IMG/VR virus record: IMGVR_UViG_3300045988_136451
Length of the DNA stretch: 64,000 nucleotides
Reading direction: 5' to 3' (one strand)
Origin: a virus
Positions 10,471-24,776 of this stretch are shown here, piece after piece (the first letter of the stretch is position 1; each line of letters starts with the position of its first letter). Position numbers and translations under genes: made by a program. Below the pieces are notes generated by a model, which saw only the letters and a list, made by a program, of their open reading frames with translations, made no database searches and was not told where the DNA came from.

Positions 10471-12465
10471 CTACATCCACCCCTGCTGCGTGCGGCTGTA
10501 GAAATGGACGTACTGGACGTAGAAGCATTCGTTGCCCTTCTGCCTGAAGTCGGTCGTGTACTGCGCCTTCTGCGTCTTCCCGTCGCGTTCGTACTCCACG
10601 ATGCCGTACGCGCCGAAGGTGCCGGAGCCGTCGGCCACCTTACCGGCAGCGTCGGCCTGCGTCGAAACCCTCACGTTATCGACACCGGCGACGTTGGCCG
10701 CCACCGTCTCGATGTCGGAGAACTGGATTGTCTGGCCGAACGGAAGCGAGTTGGCCCAGTCTATCACGGCCTTCTCCACCGATGCCTTTATCGCGTCCCG
10801 CGTGTACACGCTGAACATGAGCGTGAGGTGAACGCCGTACCTGCGTCGGCGCACCTCGTGAACCAGCGTGTTGGCCGTGACCACGCTCTGCTTCCCCACG
10901 AGCTTCTGCACCTCGGAGGGCACCGTGTTGTAGACGAACGGGATGTTCAGCGGTGTCTCGTTGGTCAAGCTGATGTTCGTGCCAGCCGGAACGAAACTGT
11001 TCTTATCGCCGCTGTAGGTGCCCATAAGCTCCACAGCGTCCATGGCGCGCGAGCTGCCGTCTCGGTTCGCGTAGCCGGAATCGTACAGCATGCGGAACTG
11101 CTTGCCTTCTTGCAGGATGATGTCCGCGCCGACGTTTATCATGCCGTTGTAAGAGCGCATGACGGGCTGGTAGGACAGGGGTATGTACAGATTGTTCTCG
11201 GTCGGCATCGTCCCGTCGTCGTGCCGCCAGTTCCCACGGTTCTGCGCCGTGACGAGCTTGTTGAAGTCGATGAACTGAAGGTCGGCGACCGTCTGCCCGC
11301 TCTCGCCGTCCACGAACACCTCGACCGTCTTGATGCCGCCACGGTTCAGGTTGGACAGGTAGTCGTACTCGATGGTGATGAAGTCGCCGATGCTCGCCGC
11401 CTTGTAGACGTAGGACACCAGAACGGTCTGGCCCACGTAGTCGGCGGGGAACGAGGACGTTATCGTGATCTGGTTCCCGGACACCGTGAAGCCCGTCGTG
11501 ATCGGCGTAACGCCGTCGTTCGACGTGATGCCGGACACGCGCAGGACGTTGGGCTGCGAAAGCGAGTAGGAGTTGCCCCGCATGACGGGGCCGATAAGCT
11601 CGGTCGTCGCCACGTCGTGGAAGGTTATCACGGCGTTCTCCGCGTCAACGTCGTACTCGCCGCGAGAGTACAGCTTGTCGGTGTCCGCGTTGCGCACCCA
11701 GAAGCGGTTCTGCACATCGAGCATTTCGGCAACCTCGTCGATTGAGTACGTCGCCGTGTAGTTGCTCTGGACTGCCACCGTCTCCGTCCACGTGCTCTCC
11801 TGCCCGATGACCGATGCGCGGCTGTCGGCGGCATGCGCGAGCGCGAGGCCCAAGTACTGGTCTACGGTGCCGAACTCGCCACGGAATATCGTGTTCACGA
11901 TTCGGGTGCGGAACTCCGCGTCCGTCTCCAAGTCGCGCCCGCCGGTCATGGGGAGGTCGTTCGTCACGCCGAAGTAGCCGGTGTAGCTCACGGAGTACGT
12001 GACGGTGTTGGCCGCGACGTTCGCCGCGCTGCCAGCGACGGTGGCGACCACGGGTATCTCCGCCTTGGTGACCCCCTTCGCCATCTCCTGATAGCTCGTC
12101 GTCTGGAAGTACACGGCGGCCTGCGTCGCGGTCGCGGGCTTGTAGAACTGCGCGCCGTAGGCTATCGCCTGCACGCTGTCGGCGTTGTCGCGCGTGATGG
12201 AGATTGTGCCGCTCGCCGCCTGCGCCTGCTGGCGCGCGAAGCCGAACATCGCGCCGAAAGCGTCAAGCTCGGAGCCGCTGTAGGAATCGACCGACCACAG
12301 GGTGGTCGTTGTGTTCTCGTCAACCACGAGGCTCGCGAGCTGCGATGCCACGGCGGTGATGATCTTGCGCGTCGGAGTGCCGAGCGTCGTGCTCAACGTG
12401 GGGTCTACCGTCGCGAGCTGGTTTATGATGCTGGCCTCGAATTGCGCCTGCGTTTGTGCTGCCAT
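10471..12465 (-). CDS. Baseplate J-like (gp47/XkdT-like) baseplate wedge protein
   Basis: 664 aa. N-terminal MAAQTQAQFEASIINQLATVDPTL...TRKII resembles the baseplate-J family. Sits directly after a gp25-like gene, the conserved contractile-tail order. RBS aaggagaagg. Confidence 0.5.
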   Translation of the reverse strand: MAAQTQAQFEASIINQLATVDPTLSTTLGTPTRKIITAVASQLASLVVDENTTTTLWSVDSYSGSELDAFGAMFGFARQQAQAASGTISITRDNADSVQAIAYGAQFYKPATATQAAVYFQTTSYQEMAKGVTKAEIPVVATVAGSAANVAANTVTYSVSYTGYFGVTNDLPMTGGRDLETDAEFRTRIVNTIFRGEFGTVDQYLGLALAHAADSRASVIGQESTWTETVAVQSNYTATYSIDEVAEMLDVQNRFWVRNADTDKLYSRGEYDVDAENAVITFHDVATTELIGPVMRGNSYSLSQPNVLRVSGITSNDGVTPITTGFTVSGNQITITSSFPADYVGQTVLVSYVYKAASIGDFITIEYDYLSNLNRGGIKTVEVFVDGESGQTVADLQFIDFNKLVTAQNRGNWRHDDGTMPTENNLYIPLSYQPVMRSYNGMINVGADIILQEGKQFRMLYDSGYANRDGSSRAMDAVELMGTYSGDKNSFVPAGTNISLTNETPLNIPFVYNTVPSEVQKLVGKQSVVTANTLVHEVRRRRYGVHLTLMFSVYTRDAIKASVEKAVIDWANSLPFGQTIQFSDIETVAANVAGVDNVRVSTQADAAGKVADGSGTFGAYGIVEYERDGKTQKAQYTTDFRQKGNECFYVQYVHFYSRTQQGWM

Positions 12466-12474
12466 GCCTTCTCC

Positions 12475-12912
12475 TTAGAGCGTCTGCGCGACGGAGACCT
12501 GCGTGGCCGCCGCCGTGCTCACGATGACGAGGACGTTCACGTTCGTGCCGGTCGCGCTGACCGTTATGCTGTTGAGGGTGGAAACTATGTCGTCGTCCGT
12601 CCAGACCTGTAGGAACTCGTTGTCCGAGAGGCGCTGCTTGTCCCTTGCGATCTGCTCGTTCTGGGCCGCTATGTAGTTCGTCACGACGCGGTTGACCTCC
12701 GAGCGGATGGCCGTCAGGTTGTCGTCGAACGCGGGTGCCCCTATGTAGTTCCAGAGGTCGGAGCCGAACTTGGGGTAGACGGCATCCGTGCCGATAGGTT
12801 CGAGCAGCCAAAGCGCCATCTCCTGCTGGATGCGCGCGGCCCCCTCGACCATCACGGGCTTGCCGTCCCCTCCTATGACTATATCGCCATCCGCGACCTT
12901 GATACACTTCAT
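12475..12912 (-). CDS. Baseplate wedge gp25/W-like protein, 145 aa
   Basis: Size and position (directly upstream of baseplate J). Motif DGDIVIGGDGKPVMVEG...PIGTDAVYPKFGSDL resembles the GPW/gp25 family. Confidence 0.4.
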   Translation of the reverse strand: MKCIKVADGDIVIGGDGKPVMVEGAARIQQEMALWLLEPIGTDAVYPKFGSDLWNYIGAPAFDDNLTAIRSEVNRVVTNYIAAQNEQIARDKQRLSDNEFLQVWTDDDIVSTLNSITVSATGTNVNVLVIVSTAAATQVSVAQTL

Positions 12913-12980
12913 GCGGTCGTCTCCTTACCCTAGTCGTCTTACGGACATTCTAGCAGCAAGGGCGGTCGGCGGCGACGGCC

Positions 12981-14864
12981 TTACGCGTCGCGGGAAACGG
13001 AGAACACGAACAGCTCGCTCGCAAGCTCGGTGAGCATGCTTTCCGCGAGAACGTCTATCCCCATGTACACGTGCCTGTCGCGGACGAGGACGGGTGCGTT
13101 CACGACCACATTGACAATGTTTTCAGCGCTCTGCACCTGATCGTAGCCCGTCGCCCTCCCCTTTCCCATGACGGTGAGCAGCCCGGTTGCCCCAAGCCCT
13201 ATGTAGAACGAGCGGTCGTAGTCCGAAACCAAGCCGCCGTCGAGCGTGACCGAGTAGATGTACTCGCGGATGTTCGCTGCGCTCTCGCCGAACAGGCCGA
13301 CGAACGGGTACGGTCGCATCTCCACGGTGTCGTCCACGTAGTATCCGCACCGACCGACGAGGCAGACGTACTTCCCGCCGCTCTCGATTATTTTATCGAC
13401 AACCGCAATCGCGTCGGCCTCCATGTTCGACACCATGAACAGGCATGTGGCGGCGTTCCGGCTGTACTTGTCCTCATGCTTCAGATCGTCATCGAAGAGA
13501 ACCCTCATGCGGTTGCTCGTCTTGTCGATCATGAGCGATGCCATGGAGTACCACGCCTCCATGTACGACACGTTGGCCTCGGTCTGCCAGTTCGCCGCCT
13601 GAAGCGAGCGCATGGACAGCGCCATGCCGTTGTAATCGGAGGCGTTGCGCTCCGATATGCGGTACTTGTCCATCGCGGCCCACAGCTCGATCACCTTCTC
13701 GTCCGATAGAAGGCGGTAGTCGGAGTAGTCGCCCACGACGACCTGCGAGGCGTTGTACTTCGCGAGCACGGAGAACATTCCGTCGGGCTGCGTTATGTCG
13801 GGCACGTCGAGCACGAATACCGGCTTGCACGCCTCCCCGATGCGGCAGCACACGGCGGTCAACGCCTCGAAGCTGCGAAGCTCGCTCTGCTCGTCGGTGC
13901 TCTTCTGGTACTTCATGGGCATGCCCGCATAGGCCCAGCCGTACGTGCCGAAGTCGGACGCTATGCCGCTCCTCGCATACCCGGCACCGTCGGAATCGAC
14001 TAGGCAGTAGGCGTAGTCGGGAACTATTGCCGTGAGGGCCGTCTGCCCTATCTTGGACTTGATCGAGACGCACAGCGCGCGCTGCTCCTCCGCGAGGAAC
14101 GAGCGCCACAGCAGGTAGTCGTCGTCCACCCCGTTGATGACGTAGCGGTCGCTGGGCATGACGCGGTTCCGCTCGTAGAAGTTCCTGTCAGCCGTCGCGT
14201 TGCGGTCGTATCGCAGACCGGCAAGCCCGATGCCGTCGAGGCAGTACCCGTACACGTCGGTTCCGTGCATCGTGCGCAGCTCGTCGATGAGGGCGGTGAG
14301 CGCGTCCTTCGCCCCGGACGGCGAAAACATGCGCGAGTACTCGCCCGTGCTCGACCTCTGCTGGTACGGATGGAAGTCGGGGTTCGTCGTGTCGCTCCAC
14401 AACTCTGACGACACGGCGCACGTCACGGCCACGTTGCGGTGCCTGAAACGGTCGAGCAGCTGCTTCAGAACCGGGTTCTTGCCCAGCCCGTAATCGGCGG
14501 CGACCTCGCTGTCCCAGTAAACCATGCCGTCCTTTGCGACGGTCAGAAGCACCTCGTCGAAGCCTGCGGACGCTATGTCCTCGACCACGACCCGCTCCTT
14601 GCCCACGCAGTCCGCCGCGTTCAGGCGGATGGCGTACCGCATCACGTTCGTCTCGCCGTTGGTGACGCGGTTCCACAGCTTCCACTTGTTCGAGGCGATG
14701 CGCTGGATGAGCCACACTTCGTTGACCTTCGGCGGCTGGTCGAAGCCCGACAGGTCGAACGATATGGTGAGCTTGCCGGTCTGCGTCATGCATGTTATTC
14801 CGTCGCTGCCAACGTTGGTTATCATCGCGGGCAGCATCTCGTTCTTGTTCATGTTCCTCTGCAT
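12981..14864 (-). CDS. Tail/baseplate-associated protein, 627 aa, possibly glycoside-hydrolase-like (GHL10/DUF187-like TIM barrel)
   Basis: YGYCLDGIGLAGLRYD resembles the G-x-hLDyIRYP signature of glycoside-hydrolase-like family 10. Weak call. Confidence 0.3.
   Translation of the reverse strand: MQRNMNKNEMLPAMITNVGSDGITCMTQTGKLTISFDLSGFDQPPKVNEVWLIQRIASNKWKLWNRVTNGETNVMRYAIRLNAADCVGKERVVVEDIASAGFDEVLLTVAKDGMVYWDSEVAADYGLGKNPVLKQLLDRFRHRNVAVTCAVSSELWSDTTNPDFHPYQQRSSTGEYSRMFSPSGAKDALTALIDELRTMHGTDVYGYCLDGIGLAGLRYDRNATADRNFYERNRVMPSDRYVINGVDDDYLLWRSFLAEEQRALCVSIKSKIGQTALTAIVPDYAYCLVDSDGAGYARSGIASDFGTYGWAYAGMPMKYQKSTDEQSELRSFEALTAVCCRIGEACKPVFVLDVPDITQPDGMFSVLAKYNASQVVVGDYSDYRLLSDEKVIELWAAMDKYRISERNASDYNGMALSMRSLQAANWQTEANVSYMEAWYSMASLMIDKTSNRMRVLFDDDLKHEDKYSRNAATCLFMVSNMEADAIAVVDKIIESGGKYVCLVGRCGYYVDDTVEMRPYPFVGLFGESAANIREYIYSVTLDGGLVSDYDRSFYIGLGATGLLTVMGKGRATGYDQVQSAENIVNVVVNAPVLVRDRHVYMGIDVLAESMLTELASELFVFSVSRDA
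13384..13399. repeat. Copy of the AT-rich motif TCGATTATTTTATCGA (inside a coding region)
   Basis: One of six copies of TCGAT-TA(A/T)(A/T)T(A/T)A-TCGA. Encodes DKIIE here. Confidence 0.5.
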
Positions 14865-14865
14865 G

Positions 14866-16284
14866 TCACTTCTCCCACGAGACCATGCCGGGGAACCGAG
14901 TGTCGCCCTTCTCGCACTGCGGGCACACGAGCGTCACGCTCGTGCTGTACTGGCCCGCGTTCGGGCCTCCGCTGTGCTGCACGTTGGTGACGTACCCGGA
15001 AAGCCCCAAGCTCTTCACCTTCACGCGCATGCCGGGCCAGATGTTCGGCATCCACGTTATCTGCAAGCTCATCTGGTACTGGTTGGCCCAGTTTCGCATG
15101 AACTCGTACAGCGCGTAAAGGAACGGGAGGATGTACTGCGGGTTCGCGTCCGTCCCTCCGCTCGTCCCGCTGTCGTTCGGCTTCTCGATGACGTGCTGAA
15201 GCTGCTTCTTGGCGGGCCTCGCCCCGTAGCGGCGGTACAGCTCGCGCGGCGTGAACCGCCACTCCTCGCCCTCCGGTATGTTGATGAGCTTCTTCAGCAG
15301 CTCGCTCGGCTCGTTCGATATGGCGTTCTCCCCGACATCGTTCAAAACGCCCGACGACAAGGCGGCTGTGTTGCTCTCGATGGACACCACGCCCTGCGTG
15401 AGCGCCCATTGCATGTCGGAGGTCTGGCCGCTGCTTGTGAGGTACTGCCCGCCGGTGTTCACGCCTGCGCAGAACTGATGGCTCACGAACGTGTCGTCGG
15501 ACTGGGTTATCTTCAGGTCGATCAGCTCGATGTCGTCGAGCAGAAGGCACGGCGTGTTGCCAGAAACGCCCCAGTAGTCGGGATACCACGCCATGAAGGT
15601 ACCGTCCGGCCCGGCCATCACCGTGCGCATGGACGAGTTGAATATGTCCTTGACCGTGTTCCACACCGGCTCGTCGTTCGCCAGCGCGCGCTCGCCGACG
15701 AGCAGCTGGGATGCCGCCGCGTTCATCGTGTCGCCGAAGCTCGATGCGAAGAACCACGCCGTCGAGGCGAGGGAGCCTGACGAGGAGTTCGCCCCTCCGC
15801 CCTGCGCCTCGGCCTCCTCGGTGCTGTCAGCATCGCCGCCGTACTCGCTCGCCGTTATTCCGTCCTTGCTCTGAACGTACCTCGGCGTAACAAACAAGAA
15901 GCCGCCGCTGTCGTACACGTTCACCGACAAGTTGTACTTCAGGGCATAGGACGATATTGCGTTGACGGCGTTCAACTTGGTTCGCTCGCCAACGTCGATA
16001 AGGGAGAACTCCCATGCAAGCCCGTAGCCGAAATAATGTATGTACTGCAAGAACTTGACGTTGCCGTCCTCGGCCCACCTCTCGGCGCTCTCCTTTGACA
16101 CGTAGCCTGAATAGCCGAAGTCTATGGTAAGCCCGTTGTAGTTCTTTTCGAGGTCTGCCGCAAACAGGCGACACGCCGCCTCGAACGCGCCTTGGAGGCC
16201 GTTCGTGCCCTCTCCGCGCGTTTCGGCCTCGTTAACCCCCGCGTACTTGTCGTCGTCGGTTGGCACGAAGTACTTCCCTAGCAT
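14866..16284 (-). CDS. Baseplate-associated structural protein (about 472 aa from MLGKYFVPTDDDKY)
   Basis: RBS ggaggatagg before the ATG. Located between the hub-lysozyme paralog and the 627 aa protein. Confidence 0.35.
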   Translation of the reverse strand: MLGKYFVPTDDDKYAGVNEAETRGEGTNGLQGAFEAACRLFAADLEKNYNGLTIDFGYSGYVSKESAERWAEDGNVKFLQYIHYFGYGLAWEFSLIDVGERTKLNAVNAISSYALKYNLSVNVYDSGGFLFVTPRYVQSKDGITASEYGGDADSTEEAEAQGGGANSSSGSLASTAWFFASSFGDTMNAAASQLLVGERALANDEPVWNTVKDIFNSSMRTVMAGPDGTFMAWYPDYWGVSGNTPCLLLDDIELIDLKITQSDDTFVSHQFCAGVNTGGQYLTSSGQTSDMQWALTQGVVSIESNTAALSSGVLNDVGENAISNEPSELLKKLINIPEGEEWRFTPRELYRRYGARPAKKQLQHVIEKPNDSGTSGGTDANPQYILPFLYALYEFMRNWANQYQMSLQITWMPNIWPGMRVKVKSLGLSGYVTNVQHSGGPNAGQYSTSVTLVCPQCEKGDTRFPGMVSWEK

Positions 16285-16285
16285 C

Positions 16286-17431
16286 CTATCCTCCGAACTG
16301 GTCGTACGCCGACCGGGCATATGCGATGCGCTTCTCCATCATGGGGACGGAACCGCGCGTGTACACCCGCTCGAACGCCTCCGTTGCCCATGGCAGATCG
16401 GTGATCGCCTTGAACTGGTCGAACGTCATCTTCTCCGCTATCCACGCCTGCGCGCCGTTCGGATACGTGTAAACTCCGTTGCCGGTGAAAGCGTCGAACT
16501 GGGCGGGTGCCTCGCTGACGAAGAACAAGAGCTGCGCCTGTATGTCCGTCCATTCGGTGCCGCGCTCCGACGCGAAGGCGCACAGGTCGCTGAACCGGCC
16601 AGAACCGGCCTCCCACTGAAGCAGCCCGCGTCCGGGGCCTCCGCCTCCTTGGCACGCCGCCGGGTCTACGCCGCTCTCCTGCTGCATGTTCCCGATCACG
16701 CCAGCCGCCGCCTGCTTGCTGAAGCCTTGGCTCATGCAGAAGTTCCACACCACCTCCGCGTTGCTGTTGCCGCTGAAGTCGGCAGCGCCGCCGGACGACG
16801 AGCCTCCGCTTGCGCCGCCTATGGTCGGCCCCGACGTTTGGAGCATCGCGTAAATCTGCGCCACCATGTCCGCGCCTTGGGTGTCCGATAGCTTCGCTTG
16901 GTACATGGATGTCGCCCACTCGATCACGTCGCTCGGTATCTGGCCCACGCTGATCTTCGACGCGGGCCAGTCCGCGACCGCTTGGAGCACCTTGACCCCG
17001 CTCTTCCAATAGCCGCCGTCCTGCTCCGCATCGTCCTGTCCACGGTAGACGAGCCAGAAGCTCTCCTCCAAGCCCGCGTCCCAGTAGAGCTTCTGCAAGC
17101 GGTACAGGACATCGCGCCCCCTTATCTCAACCTCGTCGGTGTTGAGGTTGTAGTAAGGGGCCTTCGTGACGTAGCCCGCGAGGACTTGGTAGCGGTCGGC
17201 CTTGGAGAGGTATATGGCTATCTTGTCCATGGGCATGAGAAGCCCGGTGTACTTCTTCCCCTCGTTCTTCAGATGCAGGATGAAGTCGCTCGAATCGTCC
17301 GTCTTCAGGTTGACGGTGAACCGCGTGATGTCGTCCGAGAGGTCGTACGCGGTCGTCCTCCCGTCGCGCGTCAGCGACACGTTGGCCTCGACCATGGGGG
17401 TGTATGTAAGGATAGCCGTCATGGCTGACAT
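16286..17431 (-). CDS. Tail-associated lysin paralog 3: shared N-terminal module plus phage tail lysozyme-like domain
   Basis: N-terminus MSAMTAILTYTPMV is paralogous to 22452..23552 and 21364..22455. After a Gly/Ser linker comes AAGVIGNMQQESGVDP...GRGLLQWE, the G-N-x3-ESG lysozyme-like signature. Confidence 0.5.
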   Translation of the reverse strand: MSAMTAILTYTPMVEANVSLTRDGRTTAYDLSDDITRFTVNLKTDDSSDFILHLKNEGKKYTGLLMPMDKIAIYLSKADRYQVLAGYVTKAPYYNLNTDEVEIRGRDVLYRLQKLYWDAGLEESFWLVYRGQDDAEQDGGYWKSGVKVLQAVADWPASKISVGQIPSDVIEWATSMYQAKLSDTQGADMVAQIYAMLQTSGPTIGGASGGSSSGGAADFSGNSNAEVVWNFCMSQGFSKQAAAGVIGNMQQESGVDPAACQGGGGPGRGLLQWEAGSGRFSDLCAFASERGTEWTDIQAQLLFFVSEAPAQFDAFTGNGVYTYPNGAQAWIAEKMTFDQFKAITDLPWATEAFERVYTRGSVPMMEKRIAYARSAYDQFGG

Positions 17432-17472
17432 TCTACCATTCGCGGCGCTCCCCCTCCATGCAGCTCGGCACC

Positions 17473-17488
17473 TCGATTATTTTATCGA
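17473..17488. repeat. Copy of TCGATTATTTTATCGA (overlaps the stop of the C39 peptidase gene; about 45 bp upstream of the lysin-paralog-3 start)
   Basis: Identical 16-mer, read in a different frame from the other coding copies. Confidence 0.5.
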
Positions 17489-18184
17489 GCGGAGACTGTA
17501 GAAGTAGAGCCACTGCGTGGCGTTAAGCTCCTCATCGGAATAAGGGCGCTGCGAGTTGTCGCCGCTCTTGGGGTCGCGGACGCGAACGTCGCCGTCGAAG
17601 CTCTGCCACAGCAGCACGACGTGGCCGCCGTAGCAGTTGCCCTGCCCGCCGAGCTGCCCGGTCATACCTGCGAACACCACCGCGCCGTCCGCGCACTCCG
17701 CCAGCGCCTCGTCGAGCGTCCAGTAGATTTCGGAGCCGTCGAGGCCGTAAGCCTCCTCCGCGTACGCGCAGAACTTGCCGGGGTCGTTGACCCCATCGGT
17801 CAGGCACGTGTCGCCAACGACCGCCGCGAGGTCGCGCGGGTAGGTGATCTGGTTCGTAAGGTACTCTATCGCCATGGCGGCGCACACGAGGCCGCACCCG
17901 GCCTGCGAGATCGACGAGCCTGCGTACTCGATTCCTCCCCACTGCGGGTCGTCCTGAAGGTACAGCGGCATGTTGTAGCCCGTCGGTATGGCCCTCTGGG
18001 CCTCTGTGGCGGGCGCTGGGAGGTCGTTAGCGTCGAAGTCGAGATAGGGTTCATCTTCGAGCCAAACGGGGGTTCTGGGAGGCTCTGCGTCCGTCTGTGG
18101 CACATCGGAGAAAACCGAATAGCCGATGATCGCCGCGAACAGCGCGGCGACCGCCAGACATTTTATGTAGCCGTTTCGTCTCAT
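17477..18184 (-). CDS. Membrane-anchored C39-like cysteine peptidase (candidate endolysin / cell-wall peptidase)
   Basis: N-terminal hydrophobic segment CLAVAALFAAIIGY. QDDPQWGG...SISQAGCGLVCAAMAIEYL (C39_2-like Cys motif) and downstream GGHVVLL His. Confidence 0.5.
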   Translation of the reverse strand: MRRNGYIKCLAVAALFAAIIGYSVFSDVPQTDAEPPRTPVWLEDEPYLDFDANDLPAPATEAQRAIPTGYNMPLYLQDDPQWGGIEYAGSSISQAGCGLVCAAMAIEYLTNQITYPRDLAAVVGDTCLTDGVNDPGKFCAYAEEAYGLDGSEIYWTLDEALAECADGAVVFAGMTGQLGGQGNCYGGHVVLLWQSFDGDVRVRDPKSGDNSQRPYSDEELNATQWLYFYSLRSIK

Positions 18185-18217
18185 GGCCGATGATTATACC
18201 CCAGCGGGAGCCAAGCG

Positions 18218-18637
18218 TCACCCGGTTCGCTCCCACAGCGGCACCGCCACCGACAACGGCATGTTGTTGTGAGGCCGGTTCTGCGCCATGGGCACGTCGT
18301 CCCTGTGGTTCTCCTCGTCGTTGATGAAGCCCCACCCGGAGGTACCGGTGCCTTGGAAGAACTCGACCCCCGACATGCTCGAACCAGAGGCTAGGTTGCA
18401 CAGGAGCGCGTGCGCATGCCACGGAAGCTCCGCAGCGGTGAGCGCGTGCGCGTTCTCCCCGTACCTTCCGCCCGTCCGGTACGTGCCGCCAGCCGCCACG
18501 AGGTACACGCCCTCGTCGTGGCGCTCCCACGTGGTGCCGGGCCACTCCGCGTTCGGGTCGCCCTTGCAGAACACGAACTCGCCGACGGCGTGCGGGCAGT
18601 AAACGGAGCGCTTCGGCCCGAAGAGGATGCTAGTCAC
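18218..18637 (-). CDS. Tail collar-domain paralog 1, 139 aa
   Basis: YCPHAVGE...WPGTTW...HALTAAELPWHAH...RPHNNMPLSVAVPLWERTG. GTG start with RBS gaaggagg. Confidence 0.5.
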   Translation of the reverse strand: MTSILFGPKRSVYCPHAVGEFVFCKGDPNAEWPGTTWERHDEGVYLVAAGGTYRTGGRYGENAHALTAAELPWHAHALLCNLASGSSMSGVEFFQGTGTSGWGFINDEENHRDDVPMAQNRPHNNMPLSVAVPLWERTG

Positions 18638-18649
18638 GATGCGCCTCCT

Positions 18650-19108
18650 TCAGAGCGAGAAGCCCCCCCCCGACGTGCACTTCCACACGTAGGCTGCGAT
18701 GTACGGCGGAACGTTGTTGTGAGGCTTGTCGCCGCCCGTGTAGTAAATCAGGTTCTGCACCCAGTTCGACCACGCCCCCTCCGTGTAGGCCACGGTGCCG
18801 TCGTCCACCCTGTAGTCCCCGGAAGCGCTCATGTTGAACTTCTTCCCGTTCGGATTGTCGGGGGAGTGCGTGTGCCGGGGCATCTCATCGACCGTGAGGA
18901 CGTGCGCGGCCTCGCCGCCCGTGCTGCCGACTGCGTACGCTCCGGAGGCCGCGCCCGCGCACACGAACGTCCCGGCGGCCAAAAGCTCCCACTTCGTCCC
19001 CGGCCATCTTGCTGACGGGTCGGTGTCCGACAGCGTGAAGTACAGGTCTCCCGCGTCGTACGGGCACAAGACCGATTTACCGCCGCCGCTCTGAACCTTG
19101 ACCGTCAT
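18650..19108 (-). CDS. Tail collar-domain paralog 2 (about 152 aa from MTVKVQ), variant C-terminus
   Basis: LCPYDAGD...WPGTKW...HVLTVDEMPRHTH...KPHNNVPPYIAAYVWKCTSGGGFSL. A G9 homopolymer encodes the last residues. Confidence 0.45.
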   Translation of the reverse strand: MTVKVQSGGGKSVLCPYDAGDLYFTLSDTDPSARWPGTKWELLAAGTFVCAGAASGAYAVGSTGGEAAHVLTVDEMPRHTHSPDNPNGKKFNMSASGDYRVDDGTVAYTEGAWSNWVQNLIYYTGGDKPHNNVPPYIAAYVWKCTSGGGFSL

Positions 19109-19129
19109 AGCGGCATCGCCCCGCACAGA

Positions 19130-19531
19130 TCACGCGGTGCGCCTCCACAGCGGGACGCATACGGAGTACGGCATGTTGTTGTGGGGCTGGCCTCCGCCCG
19201 TGTGGACGGAACTGCTGTCAATCCAGTTGTTGCCAGAAACAGCGGCGTACCTCCCCGTGTTGCCGCCCTTCGACAGCTCGACGTTCCAGTTGTTGCCGCC
19301 GTCGCCGGTGTGGCTGTGGCTCGGAATCTCCTCGATGGTGAGGATGTGCGAGTTCTCCCCACGGTTCGTGAGCGTCTTGAAGTTGTCGCCGGAAGAGACG
19401 AGGTAGGTTGCCTCCTCGTATCTGGCCCATGTGGTGCCGGGCCACTCGCCGTTGGGGTCGAACTCGCAGTGCAGCCACGTTCCAACAGGATGCGGGCAGT
19501 AGTAGCCCTTCCCCTTGACGTTAAGCCGCAT
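19130..19531 (-). CDS. Tail collar-domain paralog 3, 133 aa
   Basis: YCPHPVGT...WPGTTW...HILTIEEIPSHSH...QPHNNMPYSVCVPLWRRTA. Confidence 0.5.
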   Translation of the reverse strand: MRLNVKGKGYYCPHPVGTWLHCEFDPNGEWPGTTWARYEEATYLVSSGDNFKTLTNRGENSHILTIEEIPSHSHTGDGGNNWNVELSKGGNTGRYAAVSGNNWIDSSSVHTGGGQPHNNMPYSVCVPLWRRTA

Positions 19532-19549
19532 GGCGCATCACGGAGGCGG

Positions 19550-19990
19550 CTATGCCCCCCCCCTGATCGTGCGCAGGTTTATCTTCACGGGCCAATTAGA
19601 CCCGTTGCAGGTTCCGTCGACATCGGAGAACGTCACCTTCGTCCCGGATATGGCGGCCCTCGCGCGCCAAAGGCACGAGTTGCCCCCAATCGCGGTTCCG
19701 AAATGGAGGTCTACCGTCTTGCCGTTCGGTGAGTACACGCGGAAGGTCGGGAGCCAAACGCCGTCTTCGTACATGAACTCGAAGTCGAGCCACTGGTAGC
19801 TCGCGGCGCTCGCGCTCAACGCGTACACGTTGCCGTTGCTCAAAAGATGGCTGCCGCTCCACAAGGTCGCTACGCCCTGCTTCGAGTACGGGATGGTCGG
19901 TATCTTCGCGAGCGTGAGCGTCGGTATCTGCGCGATGTTGAGCACGGGCGTTTGAACGCCGGACGAGTTACGGTACTTCAGGTACATCTC
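19550..19990 (-). CDS. Small unrelated structural protein inserted in the collar array (about 146 aa from MYLKYRNSS)
   Basis: ORF without the collar motifs. A G9 tract encodes its last codons (RTIRGGA). Confidence 0.3.
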   Translation of the reverse strand, partial: EMYLKYRNSSGVQTPVLNIAQIPTLTLAKIPTIPYSKQGVATLWSGSHLLSNGNVYALSASAASYQWLDFEFMYEDGVWLPTFRVYSPNGKTVDLHFGTAIGGNSCLWRARAAISGTKVTFSDVDGTCNGSNWPVKINLRTIRGGA

Positions 19991-20007
19991 ATGCCTCCTC
20001 TCGGAGG

Positions 20008-20445
20008 CTACGCGGTGCGCCTCCACATATCGACGGAAAGGTACGGGGGCCTGTTCTCATGCGGCTTGTTCCTTCCGGGGAGCCGAACGTACGTATCTTC
20101 CCACTTGACCTTACCGTATTCGCTCGCAATGCCCCAAGCGTCTGCTCCGCCGCTATTGTCGCGCTGCTTCGATTGCAGATTGATTTGCGGCAAAGCGTCT
20201 GCCGACAACGTGACGGAGGCAGCGCCTCCGGTCTTGCCGACGGCGTAATCGCCGGTCGTCGCGCCTCCGCTCGACACGAGGAAGGTGCCCGCAGCGATGC
20301 GCGTCCAAGTCGTCCCCGGCCAGAGAGCGGACGGCGTGACGTTGGATGCGCTGATGTAAACCCCTCCCACCGGGAACGGGCAGAACTGCTGAACGGATGC
20401 TCCGTTGCGCCATTTGAGGACGGACAGGTTAGCCATGCAGACCAC
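20008..20445 (-). CDS. Tail collar-domain paralog 4, 145 aa
   Basis: FCPFPVGG...WPGTTW...RNKPHENRPPYLSVDMWRRTA. Confidence 0.45.
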   Translation of the reverse strand: MVCMANLSVLKWRNGASVQQFCPFPVGGVYISASNVTPSALWPGTTWTRIAAGTFLVSSGGATTGDYAVGKTGGAASVTLSADALPQINLQSKQRDNSGGADAWGIASEYGKVKWEDTYVRLPGRNKPHENRPPYLSVDMWRRTA

Positions 20446-20457
20446 CGCCCGAAGATG

Positions 20458-20870
20458 CTACGCGGTGCGCTTCCACATGTACACGGCGAGCCAAGGCGGC
20501 ATGTTGTTGTGCGCCGCGCCGCGCCGCCGGTATTTGCGATTCCGCCGTCCTGCCACCTGCTGCTGGGCGGCGACGGAGTATGCCACTCCCAGCCCCATGT
20601 GGCGACGTTGCCGCCGTCCTCGACCGCAAGAAGCTGATGATGATGGCTCGGCATCTCGTCGATTGTGAGCACGTGCGTGTTGGAGCCGTACGTATTGTTG
20701 ACCTTGTAGGTGTCGCCCGCCGAGACGAGGTAATGGCCCTCTCCATGCCGATGCCACGTCGTGCCCGGCCAGACCGCGTTGGGGTCGTACAGGCAGAAAA
20801 GGCACGTGCCGACAGGGAACGGGCAGTACTCCTCGAACGACGCGCCTTGGCGGAACTTGATCTTAGCCAC
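20458..20870 (-). pseudogene. Tail collar-domain paralog 5, frame-disrupted at a (GGCGC)3 pentanucleotide repeat (plus-strand GCGCC x3 at 20511..20525)
   Basis: N-terminal part (MAKIKF...YCPFPVGT...WPGTTW...HVLTIDEMPSHHH) is in the frame that starts at 20870. The conserved C-terminus GAAHNNMPPWLAVYMWKRTA is in the -1 frame ending at 20458. Removing one 5-nt unit gives ...IANTGGAAHNNMPP... in frame. Confidence 0.55.
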
Positions 20871-20885
20871 GGGAAGCCTCCCGCG

Positions 20886-21308
20886 CTACGCCGTCCTCTT
20901 CCAGACGTTGACGGAGATATGCAGGGGGTAGTAATCTGCCCCCCCTCCCGTCGCTCTACAGGCATCCATGTCCCAGTTGTACTTTTTATCTTGGGCGATC
21001 CATGGCGGGTAAGAGCCTCTAAGCGTTGTCGTACCAGCCTCGCTGTTGTAGCCGTAATACTCGTGAGTATGCGACGGCATCTGCGCGATGCCTATCTTCT
21101 TCGAGCCTCCGGTTGAACCCGCTGCGGCATAACCGGCCGTTCCGGCGCAAGCCAGTACGCCGCCCGTCAGCTTCGCCCACGAACCGCCCAAGACGGTGGC
21201 GGGGTTCTCCGAGCCGACGGTGAGGTAGAGGCTGTTCACCGGGTACACGAGGTCGAGCATCGTCTTGCCGATGCCGCCCTCCAGATGGAACCCGCTCAAT
21301 CTTGCCAT
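20886..21308 (-). CDS. Tail collar-domain paralog 6 (about 140 aa from MARLSGF)
   Basis: RBS aggagg. ...KIGIAQMPSHTHEYY...ADYYPLHISVNVWKRTA. Confidence 0.45.
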   Translation of the reverse strand: MARLSGFHLEGGIGKTMLDLVYPVNSLYLTVGSENPATVLGGSWAKLTGGVLACAGTAGYAAAGSTGGSKKIGIAQMPSHTHEYYGYNSEAGTTTLRGSYPPWIAQDKKYNWDMDACRATGGGADYYPLHISVNVWKRTA

Positions 21309-21363
21309 TGCCGCCTCCTGTGGTGTCGAATGCTGAAATGATAGCACAGGGCCGCGCGCTCGG

Positions 21364-22455
21364 CTACGCCGCCTTCTCGTAGCGGAAGAAGTGCGTCCAG
21401 CTGCCGGAGATTTTCACCACGGATATCTCGTCGCCCGTCTGGTCTCCGCCCTGCCCGTATATGCCGCCGTCCTCGGCGCTGTGAGCGCCCGCCGTCTCGC
21501 CGTTGCCGATATACCATTCCGTGTGAGCGGCGCGCCACATGATGTCGCCGCGCTTCAGCGAGCCGACGTTGCCGTCGTACGGGTACATCTTCCATCCGAT
21601 GGGCGGAAGAACCTCCTGCATGCGCGTCGTGTTGAACGTCCAGCTTCCAAGCTCCTCGCGCGTCCATCCACCGGCGAGGAGCGAGTAGAAGACCAATGAC
21701 GAGCAGTCGTAGTCGGGGTTCCCGTCGCGGTTCCCCTGACTGTACCCGTGGCTGTCGTCGTTGCATATCTGTATGGCCCACTGCACGGCCTTCTCGACCG
21801 CCTCGTACGAGGCGGTTCCCCCTCCGGCTGACGACGAGCCGCCGGAGCCTATGGCGGGGCCTGACGTTTGCAGCATCTTGTAAATCTGGTTCACCATGTC
21901 CGCGCCTTGGGTGTCGGCCAGCTTGACGCGGTACATCGACGTTGCGAACTCGATCACGTCGTCGGGCAGCTGCCCTATGGCGATCTTCGACGCGTCCCAG
22001 TTGGCGACGTTGGTGAGCACGTTCGCCCCCACGCGCCAGTACTCATCGTGCGTCTTCCACGTCGAGCTGTTCGTGAACAGGAGCTGCTGCGATTCGTACA
22101 GCCCCGCGTCCCAGTAGAGCGCTTGGAGGCGGTAGAGCGCGCACTTCCCGGACATCTCGAAGTCGGCGTTGTAAAGCCGCCAGAAGTCGCACTTGGTGAT
22201 GTACCCGGCGAAGACCGGGTACTCGTCGCCCTTGGACAGGCGTATGACGATTCTGTCCATGGGGGTGAACGCCCCGTTGTACTTCCCTCCCTTGTTCTGA
22301 AGGGACAGGGAGAACGTGGAGCAGCTATCGACGTTCAGGTTTATCTTGAAGCCGGTGATGTCGTCGGTGAGGTCGTACGCGCGCACGGAGCCGTCCGGCT
22401 GGCGCACCGCCACCTCGGCCTTGACCATCGGCGTGTAGGCGAGTATGGCCGTCAT
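21364..22455 (-). CDS. Tail-associated lysin paralog 2: shared N-terminal module plus CHAP/NlpC-P60-like cysteine peptidase domain
   Basis: MTAILAYTPMVKAEV... N-terminal module. C-terminus DCSSLVFYSL (Cys) and HTEWYIGNGETAGAHS (His). Start overlaps the stop of 22452..23552. The track ORF 21364..22731 includes upstream read-through. Confidence 0.5.
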   Translation of the reverse strand: MTAILAYTPMVKAEVAVRQPDGSVRAYDLTDDITGFKINLNVDSCSTFSLSLQNKGGKYNGAFTPMDRIVIRLSKGDEYPVFAGYITKCDFWRLYNADFEMSGKCALYRLQALYWDAGLYESQQLLFTNSSTWKTHDEYWRVGANVLTNVANWDASKIAIGQLPDDVIEFATSMYRVKLADTQGADMVNQIYKMLQTSGPAIGSGGSSSAGGGTASYEAVEKAVQWAIQICNDDSHGYSQGNRDGNPDYDCSSLVFYSLLAGGWTREELGSWTFNTTRMQEVLPPIGWKMYPYDGNVGSLKRGDIMWRAAHTEWYIGNGETAGAHSAEDGGIYGQGGDQTGDEISVVKISGSWTHFFRYEKAA

Positions 22456-23552
22456 GGCAGAAGCCCCGGCCTGCACGGATAGGCCTCGTCGAGTATAACG
22501 CCGCCGTTCCAGCCCCACCCGGTGCCCTGCGGCACGTAGGTGTTGCCGGAGTTCACCCATTCCGTCAGCGACCACTCGTGCACGTACCCTATGTTGTCGA
22601 GAACCACGCCGTTGCCGACGTAGATTCCCACATGGCCGTACACGCATCCGGGGTTGCCGGAGTTGTCCCAGCCGTAGCCGAACACGGCTGCTCCGACCTT
22701 GACCTTGCTCCAATCCGTCGATGCGCCCCACGCCCGCGCCGCCTCGCGCGCCGAAGACTTGCGGGGTATCTTGATTCCGGCAGCGTCGAACACGTCGTCA
22801 ACCCACTTCTGGCAGAAGCCGCCCTGCGTGGTTATGCCGTACCTCTCGGAGTTCTTCGCGACCTCGACGATCTTCTTCTGCGCCTCGGTCACGTCGCCGT
22901 CGAACACGTCCCCGCCGAGGCCCCCGATGTCCCCCGTCGCCTCCGTGAAGGTAGGCCCCGACACCTGCAACATCGAGTAGATTTGATTCACCATGTCGGC
23001 TCCCTGCGTGTCGGCCAGCCTCGCATCGTACATCGACAGCGCCCACTCGATGACCTCGGTCGGTATCTGGCCCACGCTGATGCGCTCGGCGGGCCAACCG
23101 GCGACGCTCATCAGGACGTTGGCTGCGGCGCGCCAGTAGCCGCCGTCCTGATCGGAGCTTTCGGCGCTCTGGAAAGTGACAAGCTCGCGAGACGCGAGAA
23201 GGCCGCTGTCCCAGTAAAGGGCCTGCAAGCGCCATAGAACGTCCTTGCCCGTTATGGTGACGGGCTGCGAGTTCAGCATGAACATGGGAACCTTCGTGAC
23301 GTAGCCCGCTAGGACTTGGTAGCGGTTCGCCTTGGAGAGGTATATGGCTATCGCGTCCATGGGCTTGAACGCCCCGTCGTACTTGCCGCCGACGTTCTGA
23401 AGCGTGAGCGAGAACGTGGAGCAGCCGTCGGTGTTCAGCGTCACGGAGAAGTCGGTGATGTCGTCGGTGAGGTCGTAGTACTTGTAGCCGTTCGCCGTCT
23501 GCGCCCTCACCTGCGCGCTCACCATCGGCGTGTAGGCGAGTATGGCCGTCAT
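22452..23552 (-). CDS. Tail-associated lysin paralog 1: shared N-terminal module plus CHAP/NlpC-P60-like domain
   Basis: MTAILAYTPMVSAQV... N-terminal module. C-terminus GFCQKWVDDVF (Cys) ... YGHVGIYVGNG (His). Confidence 0.5.
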   Translation of the reverse strand: MTAILAYTPMVSAQVRAQTANGYKYYDLTDDITDFSVTLNTDGCSTFSLTLQNVGGKYDGAFKPMDAIAIYLSKANRYQVLAGYVTKVPMFMLNSQPVTITGKDVLWRLQALYWDSGLLASRELVTFQSAESSDQDGGYWRAAANVLMSVAGWPAERISVGQIPTEVIEWALSMYDARLADTQGADMVNQIYSMLQVSGPTFTEATGDIGGLGGDVFDGDVTEAQKKIVEVAKNSERYGITTQGGFCQKWVDDVFDAAGIKIPRKSSAREAARAWGASTDWSKVKVGAAVFGYGWDNSGNPGCVYGHVGIYVGNGVVLDNIGYVHEWSLTEWVNSGNTYVPQGTGWGWNGGVILDEAYPCRPGLLP

Positions 23553-24061
23553 GCCCCGGTCGCCTCCCCACGGAACGCAGCGTCGCCCTGCGCCTTGATA
23601 TCGTCCTGCTCAACCTTGTCGGCGGGGATGTCGCCAACGCCTCCGGTGTTCTCGCTCTCGTTGCCCTCCTCGCCCGTCTCGTCCTTGACGATGACGCACT
23701 GGTAGGAGTTCTGATAGACGGAATCGCCGAACTTCACGTCAACCGGGAAGCTGGTGAACGCGATGGAGTAGGACTTCTTTATGACGGGGATGGACAGCAC
23801 CATGTGGCTCGGCTTGGTCATCGAGGTGAGGTACATGTGGTACTCGGCTATCCAGCGCGAGAACTCCAAGTACTCCTCCCGGCTCCTGAACGCGAGGCCG
23901 AGCGTTATGTCGCTCTTGCGCCAGTTGCGGGGGTACGCCGTCTGCCCCTGCCGCGCGTACGACGTTGCCGTGAGGCCGAGCGACATGCCGAAGGCGAAGT
24001 CCTCGACTATGACATCCTTGCTCCTGCCGTTGTACGTCAGCGTCCCGTTGAACGTTCCCAT
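23549..24061 (-). CDS. Baseplate/tail assembly protein, 170 aa
   Basis: ORF between the post-tape-measure gene and the hub-lysin paralogs. Confidence 0.3.
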   Translation of the reverse strand: MGTFNGTLTYNGRSKDVIVEDFAFGMSLGLTATSYARQGQTAYPRNWRKSDITLGLAFRSREEYLEFSRWIAEYHMYLTSMTKPSHMVLSIPVIKKSYSIAFTSFPVDVKFGDSVYQNSYQCVIVKDETGEEGNESENTGGVGDIPADKVEQDDIKAQGDAAFRGEATGA

Positions 24062-24062
24062 G

Positions 24063-24776
24063 TCAGCTCACCCTGTTGTAGGAGCCGTCTTCGTTCCACA
24101 CGTAGCGAACCATCTCCGACGTGCCGCCCGACACTTCGAGGCGCACCACGCCGTCGTCGGTCGTGACCTCTCCCTCGTCGTTCTGCCTGATCTTCTCGTA
24201 CTGCTCGTAGAGGCTCGCGCCGTAAGCATCGTAGCTCCCGCTGTTCTCCACGACCTGCTTCAGCGCCTTCAGCATGTCTTCCCAGTTGTTCGTGTCGGGC
24301 GTGTTGTACACGCTGCGCGTCCACCCAACGCCGTCGGGGATGGCGTTGAGCGCGTCGGTCGCCACGATCTCCTTGATGGTGTCGAAGCCGGTATCGACGA
24401 AGAACGTGAGCTGGTAGCTTATGGCCGCGACCTTCGGGCTGTAGCTGAACTTCGACACGTCCTTCAGGAACACCTTCCCGTTCCATCCGAGCACCGGGAA
24501 GTAGAACGTGACCGGGTTGCCGGTGTCCACGTGGTACTGCATGATGTCGGCCATCTTCTGCTGGAACTCCTCCATGCGCTGGTAGCGGTTCTCGTTCGTG
24601 AGGCCGCGCGCCGAGAGGTAGCCGGTGATGGTGAGGTCGCTGATGTTGCGCGCGATGATCTGGACGACGGTGCCGCCCTTCGTCTGAATCTTGTTCGTCT
24701 TCAGCTCGTAGCCCCATTTCGCCGTGCTGGGGTCGATGCCGAACGCGTAGTTGCCGAGCCTCGCCGTAGCCATCAC
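24063..24776 (-). CDS. Tail protein immediately downstream of the tape measure, 237 aa
   Basis: Position (XkdP/gpU-equivalent slot). Overlaps the tape-measure stop. Confidence 0.3.
   Translation of the reverse strand: MMATARLGNYAFGIDPSTAKWGYELKTNKIQTKGGTVVQIIARNISDLTITGYLSARGLTNENRYQRMEEFQQKMADIMQYHVDTGNPVTFYFPVLGWNGKVFLKDVSKFSYSPKVAAISYQLTFFVDTGFDTIKEIVATDALNAIPDGVGWTRSVYNTPDTNNWEDMLKALKQVVENSGSYDAYGASLYEQYEKIRQNDEGEVTTDDGVVRLEVSGGTSEMVRYVWNEDGSYNRVS

Follow-up and report, generated by a model that had tools for sequence, protein, structure and literature searches.

The tail hub of this Eggerthella myophage is likely to be built from split subunits, with one C-terminal half, three N-terminal halves that carry different hydrolases, and up to three enzymes per tail tip. 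The DNA analyzed, hereafter the window, is the whole 64,000-nucleotide stretch of IMG/VR virus record IMGVR_UViG_3300045988_136451. On our reading of its sequence, the hub gene is split and its N-half is triplicated with different enzymes, which amounts to a split hub plus two extra N-half copies. The features of the region are as follows.

10471..14864, minus strand: downstream baseplate genes, encoding a 627-aa protein, a 145-aa gp25-like wedge protein and a 664-aa Baseplate_J protein
14866..16284, minus strand: predicted hub C-half, 472 aa, with the C-terminal hub module at aa ~150-460; adjoins gene C downstream
16286..17422, minus strand: gene C, 378 aa, with the N-half module at aa 1-200 (about 16823-17422), a Gly/Ser linker and a Phage_lysozyme2 domain at aa ~224-378 with the catalytic motif GNMQQES
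17477..18184, minus strand: 235-aa Peptidase_C39_2-like protein with a hydrophobic N-terminal segment
18218..21347, minus strand: six to seven small Gp10_C-domain paralogs, inserted between gene B and the C39-like gene
21364..22455, minus strand: gene B, 363 aa, with the N-half module at aa 1-200 (about 21856-22455), a Gly/Ser linker and an Amidase_5/ELLD (CHAP-like) hydrolase domain at aa ~220-363
22452..23552, minus strand: gene A, 366 aa, with the N-half module at aa 1-200 (about 22953-23552), a Gly-rich linker and an NlpC/P60-like Cys-His hydrolase domain at aa ~222-366 (about 22455-22889)
23549..24776, minus strand: pair of small conserved genes that separate gene A from the tape measure, with products of 237 aa (phrog_2786) and 170 aa
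24773..26983, minus strand: 736-aa protein, upstream of the hub module in the place that the gp128 tape measure occupies in Myrna (synteny)

The open reading frames of A, B and C are all present on the minus strand at these coordinates. A preliminary description of this DNA had presented them as three paralogs that begin with MTAIL and share one N-terminal module of about 200 aa, and the alignment bears this out: the three proteins are 57-62% identical across their first 203 aa, with 92 invariant columns, which is well above chance and upholds the homology of the N-modules. The similarity ends after ...LQ(T/V)SGP and is followed by the Gly/Ser-rich linkers that had been described between the module and the C-terminal domains (for example GSGGSSSAGGG and GGASGGSSSGG). 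The common N-terminus holds when gene C is taken to start at 17422 (MTAIL...) instead of at 17431 (MSAMTAIL...), as had been assumed. The former start is the more likely one because the orthologue in phage LE2-3 is annotated in this way and because A, B and all orthologues start likewise.

We then considered the C-terminal domains, which had been described as two Cys-His hydrolases and one lysozyme-like enzyme. These types proved right, both Cys-His domains being papain-like. The domain of gene A matches NlpC/P60 (PF00877) weakly, with 21.6 bits against a Pfam cut-off of 23, and the NCBIfam p60 endopeptidase with an E-value of 7e-5. Its Cys247 and His307 are invariant in eight first-position paralogues from eight loci, four of which have the domain type of gene A, and the third triad position is Asp or Asn in six of the eight. 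Gene B carries a domain matching both Amidase_5 (PF05382, 36.4 bits, cut-off 21) and ELLD (PF25309, 36.7 bits, cut-off 27), and the alignment of this type shows an invariant Cys in DCSS and an invariant His in HTEWY. The domain of gene C covers positions 2-140 of the 140 of Phage_lysozyme2 (PF18013, E 1.6e-29, 103 bits), and its type is characterized by a GN..ES motif with an invariant Glu-Ser. The catalytic residues are thus conserved in all three types. Each of A, B and C is therefore predicted to be a wall hydrolase composed of a half-hub module and an enzyme domain. Over the wider family the enzyme cargo is diverse and includes NlpC/P60, ELLD, lysozyme2, CHAP, M23 and SLT domains.

Comparison with PHROGs identified what the shared module is part of. 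The N-modules of A, B and C match phrog_2810 (952 positions) over profile positions ~50-286 with E-values of 1e-19 to 1e-22 (positions 51-286, E 1.9e-19 for gene A). The C-terminal ~270 positions of this family are absent from A, B and C and are matched only by the neighbouring 472-aa protein, which aligns to positions 648-920 (E 1.1e-41). In Myrna gp132 (963 aa) the two regions belong to one chain: the N-module spans aa 52-224 and the C-module aa 708-923, and the chain also has a muramidase-like and an NlpC/P60 domain. The N-module retrieves this protein by BLASTP with an E-value of 1e-15, and the 472-aa protein matches its aa 708-923 with an E-value of 8e-33. The module and the 472-aa protein are homologous to the two ends of single-chain hubs, and the assignment of the shared module to the N-terminal half of a gp27/Mu gp44-type hub protomer is supported. 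The full protomer is not found on one polypeptide in the window, in LE2-3 or in at least nine further lineages, where the N- and C-modules lie in separate ORFs. The preliminary description had overlooked the 472-aa partner, the module being only half a hub. Residues ~7-130 of the 472-aa protein are probably an inactive VanY/M15-like relic.

An exhaustive HMMER search gave 674 relatives of the N-module; a word-indexed homologue search had returned just fragments and close relatives. Among the best 150 of these 674, 69 are short proteins (330-420 aa) consisting of the N-module and one hydrolase, and about 55 are long, with the N- and C-modules at opposite ends. Related loci were located with a 17-sequence subset of the 69-sequence alignment. 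The closest fused relative, P0057, shows the same synteny (TMP-228-218-hub-627-145-Baseplate_J) and gene set, but has a single hub gene. We also considered whether the tail module might contain a second complete hub gene and rejected it: no Pfam, PHROG or NCBIfam hub match and no room for such a gene were seen between the tape measure and Baseplate_J, a region that includes the 627-aa protein, which has no matches and occupies the usual spike position.

AF2 modelling of gene A with a three-sequence alignment of the window paralogs gave a pLDDT of 35 and no usable fold. PDB sequence searches with the N-module profiles gave no match or chance-level matches only, and searches with the 472-aa and 627-aa proteins gave none. 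The hub fold is assigned to the window proteins through a fused homologue that is ~30% identical to them. The predicted model of this fused relative fits the hubs of Mu gp44, P2 gpD and pyocin R2 (1wru, 3cdd, 6u5h) over 287-293 of ~320 residues at ~3 A, and it also matches the gp27 chain of T4 (1k28). Matches to VgrG-type proteins extend over ~220-320 residues, which would fit the gp27-like part of these proteins. As to whether the module is a hub, Dit or gp5 OB-fold domain, the listed structural matches are dominated by hub chains, with no Dit chain among them. Of the central spike or hub proposed previously, the hub stands, on the evidence of phrog_2810, Myrna gp132 and the hub-chain fold matches; the gp5 OB-fold of a spike, like Dit, was not recovered among the listed matches.

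Gene order agrees with a hub. A, B, C and the C-half lie between the tape measure and the gp25-like and Baseplate_J wedge genes (order TMP - hub - wedge), and the pair of small genes encoding the 237-aa and 170-aa proteins precedes the fused hub in Myrna and in lineage L031 too. The families of the three C-terminal domains are also used by endolysins, which raises the question of whether A, B and C might be ordinary, non-virion endolysins whose shared N-terminus is a wall-binding or regulatory domain. We consider this highly improbable, because single-chain hubs begin with a homologue of the module, which forms part of the hub fold, and because of the position of the genes between the tape measure and the wedge genes. 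The typical layout of Gram-positive endolysins is an enzyme followed by a binding domain, the reverse of the order in A, B and C. Given its homology and hub fold, we reject a wall-binding role of the N-module in endolysins.

The three genes belong to one co-directional module, in which B and C are ~4 kb apart in the window. ATGA overlaps join the stop of the 170-aa gene to the start of gene A, and the stop of A to the start of B. The start of the 472-aa gene, preceded by GGAGGA, comes 1 nt past the end of gene C. These overlaps and the 1-nt gap indicate co-translation. A programmed frameshift or read-through joining gene C to the C-half is unlikely, since the stop-to-start spacing varies (+1 nt in the window; 0, 9 and 11 nt in L034, L004 and L036, respectively). 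Of the genes that separate B from C in the window, the Gp10_C block is outside the hub and limited to some lineages (a large gap is also present in L007/L013). In the L004 lineage, too, a Peptidase_C39_2-like gene lies between those of types B and C, and its 235-aa counterpart in the window possibly adds a fourth wall hydrolase to the module.

The arrangement of three N-halves followed by one C-half is found in the window, in LE2-3 and in L004, L007, L009, L011, L012, L032, L034 and L036 (40-65% GC), and this three-plus-one set is recurrent in at least nine metagenomic lineages. Lineages with N-modules that are no more than ~40% identical still have these three enzyme types, arranged alike. 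In the L028/L029 lineage a complete module contains two N-half genes. Overall, the family is widespread in uncultured phages of ~100-130 kb, mostly from gut metagenomes; its cultured member, LE2-3, infects Eggerthella lenta DSM 2243. We found no paper on LE2-3, the E. lenta phage papers retrieved dealing with unrelated siphophages, and a scan of species-representative bacterial genomes revealed no prophage copy.

Docking module and cargo evolve differently. N-modules within a genome share the 57-62% identity seen in the window, whereas orthologues of distant lineages share 39-47%; the enzyme domains group by type across lineages, with alignment scores of 200-770 against a background of ~30. 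The within-genome likeness is as expected if all three N-modules must fit a common partner, and patchy low synonymous divergence suggests local gene conversion among them. These data bear on the idea that only gene C completes the hub, A and B using the module as an adaptor elsewhere (in an extra ring or at the periphery) or acting as assembly-stage or non-virion enzymes. Gene C and the 472-aa gene do look as though they arose directly by fission of a fused ancestor with the order N - glycosidase - peptidase - C, and in the window A and B lie at a distance from C. Such a division of labour is nevertheless quite unlikely, because A, B and C are contiguous in most lineages, because the concerted evolution of the N-modules speaks for equivalent roles, and because all three paralogs retain the residues that are invariant family-wide (D31, N53, G83 and P164; K57 and Y84 nearly so).

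Taken together, we propose from the sequence and the fused-relative model that the two halves associate and that the paralogs are present in particles. The gene at 14866-16284 would supply the C-terminal half of a gp27/Mu gp44-type protomer. A, B and C would each bring an N-half, tethered by the flexible Gly/Ser linker to an NlpC/P60-type endopeptidase, an Amidase_5/CHAP-like amidase or endopeptidase, or a lysozyme-like glycosidase, the bond cleaved by each being a prediction. By non-covalent re-association an N-half would dock onto a C-half and complete one hub protomer. Since every solved hub with this fold is a trimer, three such sockets per tail tip would be expected, and if all three paralogs enter virions the particle could bear up to three wall-cutting enzymes where the tube meets the thick Gram-positive wall.

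How the sockets are filled is a separate question. One possible, though tentative, answer is an obligate asymmetric heterotrimer, in which a C-half trimer always bears A, B and C once each. The symmetry of the tip would be broken, a glycosidase, an amidase/endopeptidase and a stem-peptide endopeptidase would occupy fixed positions in every virion, gene conversion would keep the N-halves compatible and the cargo would be freely swappable. A 1:1:1 heterotrimer is plausible on geometric grounds and agrees with the repeated occurrence of exactly three N-half genes, whose enzyme types and order persist despite the divergence of the N-modules; the solved hubs matched are trimers and the genes are translationally coupled. 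The two-gene L028/L029 lineage argues against it, and no paralog-specific interface was identified. In gp27/gp44 hubs the two barrel domains alternate round the ring, and if the C-half barrels separate the N-halves in this way, nothing obvious enforces one of each.

Alternatively, each virion could carry three copies of a single paralog, so that three kinds of particle would arise and hedge against variation in the wall. The wide variation of enzyme cargo over the family and the existence of lineages with one, two or three N-half genes are compatible with this. Yet the genes form one co-directional module with the ATGA overlap of A and B, no switch was seen in the region read around them (though the ~4-kb block parts B from C), homotypic sorting would need an N-N recognition for which there is no evidence, and the N-modules are kept similar rather than divergent; we consider such alternative hubs unlikely. 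We prefer a reading in which the N-halves may be quasi-equivalent plugs for one socket, possibly without mutual contact if the barrels alternate, with an occupancy that may be 1:1:1 or mixed.

Several known systems share part of this organization. Vibrio cholerae VgrG1/2/3 'evolved' paralogs are said, in work from 2007 attributed to Pukatzki et al., to be able to co-assemble. Serratia VgrGs are reportedly unable to mix (PMC4924876). Like A, B and C, the VgrGs are paralogs of a gp27-like hub/spike subunit with different C-terminal effectors (a peptidoglycan hydrolase on VgrG-3) that may share a trimer, but they are complete hub-plus-spike chains of the bacterial T6SS, unrelated in sequence to this family. 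T4 gp5-gp27 (1k28) likewise places a wall-degrading enzyme on the central hub/spike complex; its lysozyme, however, is a single enzyme type located on the spike gp5 (OB-fold plus beta-helix) and not on the hub. The hubs of Mu gp44, P2 gpD and pyocin R2 have a core fold corresponding to the N-module plus C-module and the same position after the tape measure, but are single chains of ~320-380 aa without enzyme domains. The hub-hydrolases of Gram-positive contractile systems, namely diffocin CD1368 (8v3w_H), the phi812 hub C51/CHAP (9euf_E), SPO1 gp12.1 and the A511-like 'tail lysin', have one gene and one enzyme type per hub, without a split or paralogous half-hubs. Closest are cyanophage A-1(L) gp15, a single-chain hub 'of dual hydrolytic activities' (PDB 8kea; PMC10966104), and phrog_2810 of actinobacteriophages (~950-aa 'virion structural / minor tail protein', e.g. 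Myrna gp132). In both, all domains are on one polypeptide, giving a homotrimer with the same cargo on each arm, whereas in the window the chain is divided behind its first enzyme and three N-half copies carry three different enzymes. Hub-hydrolases, including single-chain multi-enzyme hubs, are already known; what is novel is the split hub with the N-half in three copies, of which a limited literature search found no earlier description.

Hubs have been treated as homotrimers of one chain, with a single enzyme, or a single multi-domain chain, as the tail lysin of each hub. If true, a half-subunit hub with three enzyme-bearing halves would be a new route to diversify the wall-penetration toolkit. 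An obligate A+B+C tip, if true, would break the three-fold symmetry assumed for all contractile-tail hubs and would be a phage counterpart of the cargo-swapping VgrG spikes; since LE2-3 is in culture, symmetry and stoichiometry are directly testable. Concerted evolution of the docking module against stably divergent cargo offers a clean case study of domain-level evolution. The N-half itself looks like a portable 'docking tag' for enzymes at the tail tip, and could aid the engineering of phages and tailocins against thick-walled Gram-positive gut bacteria.

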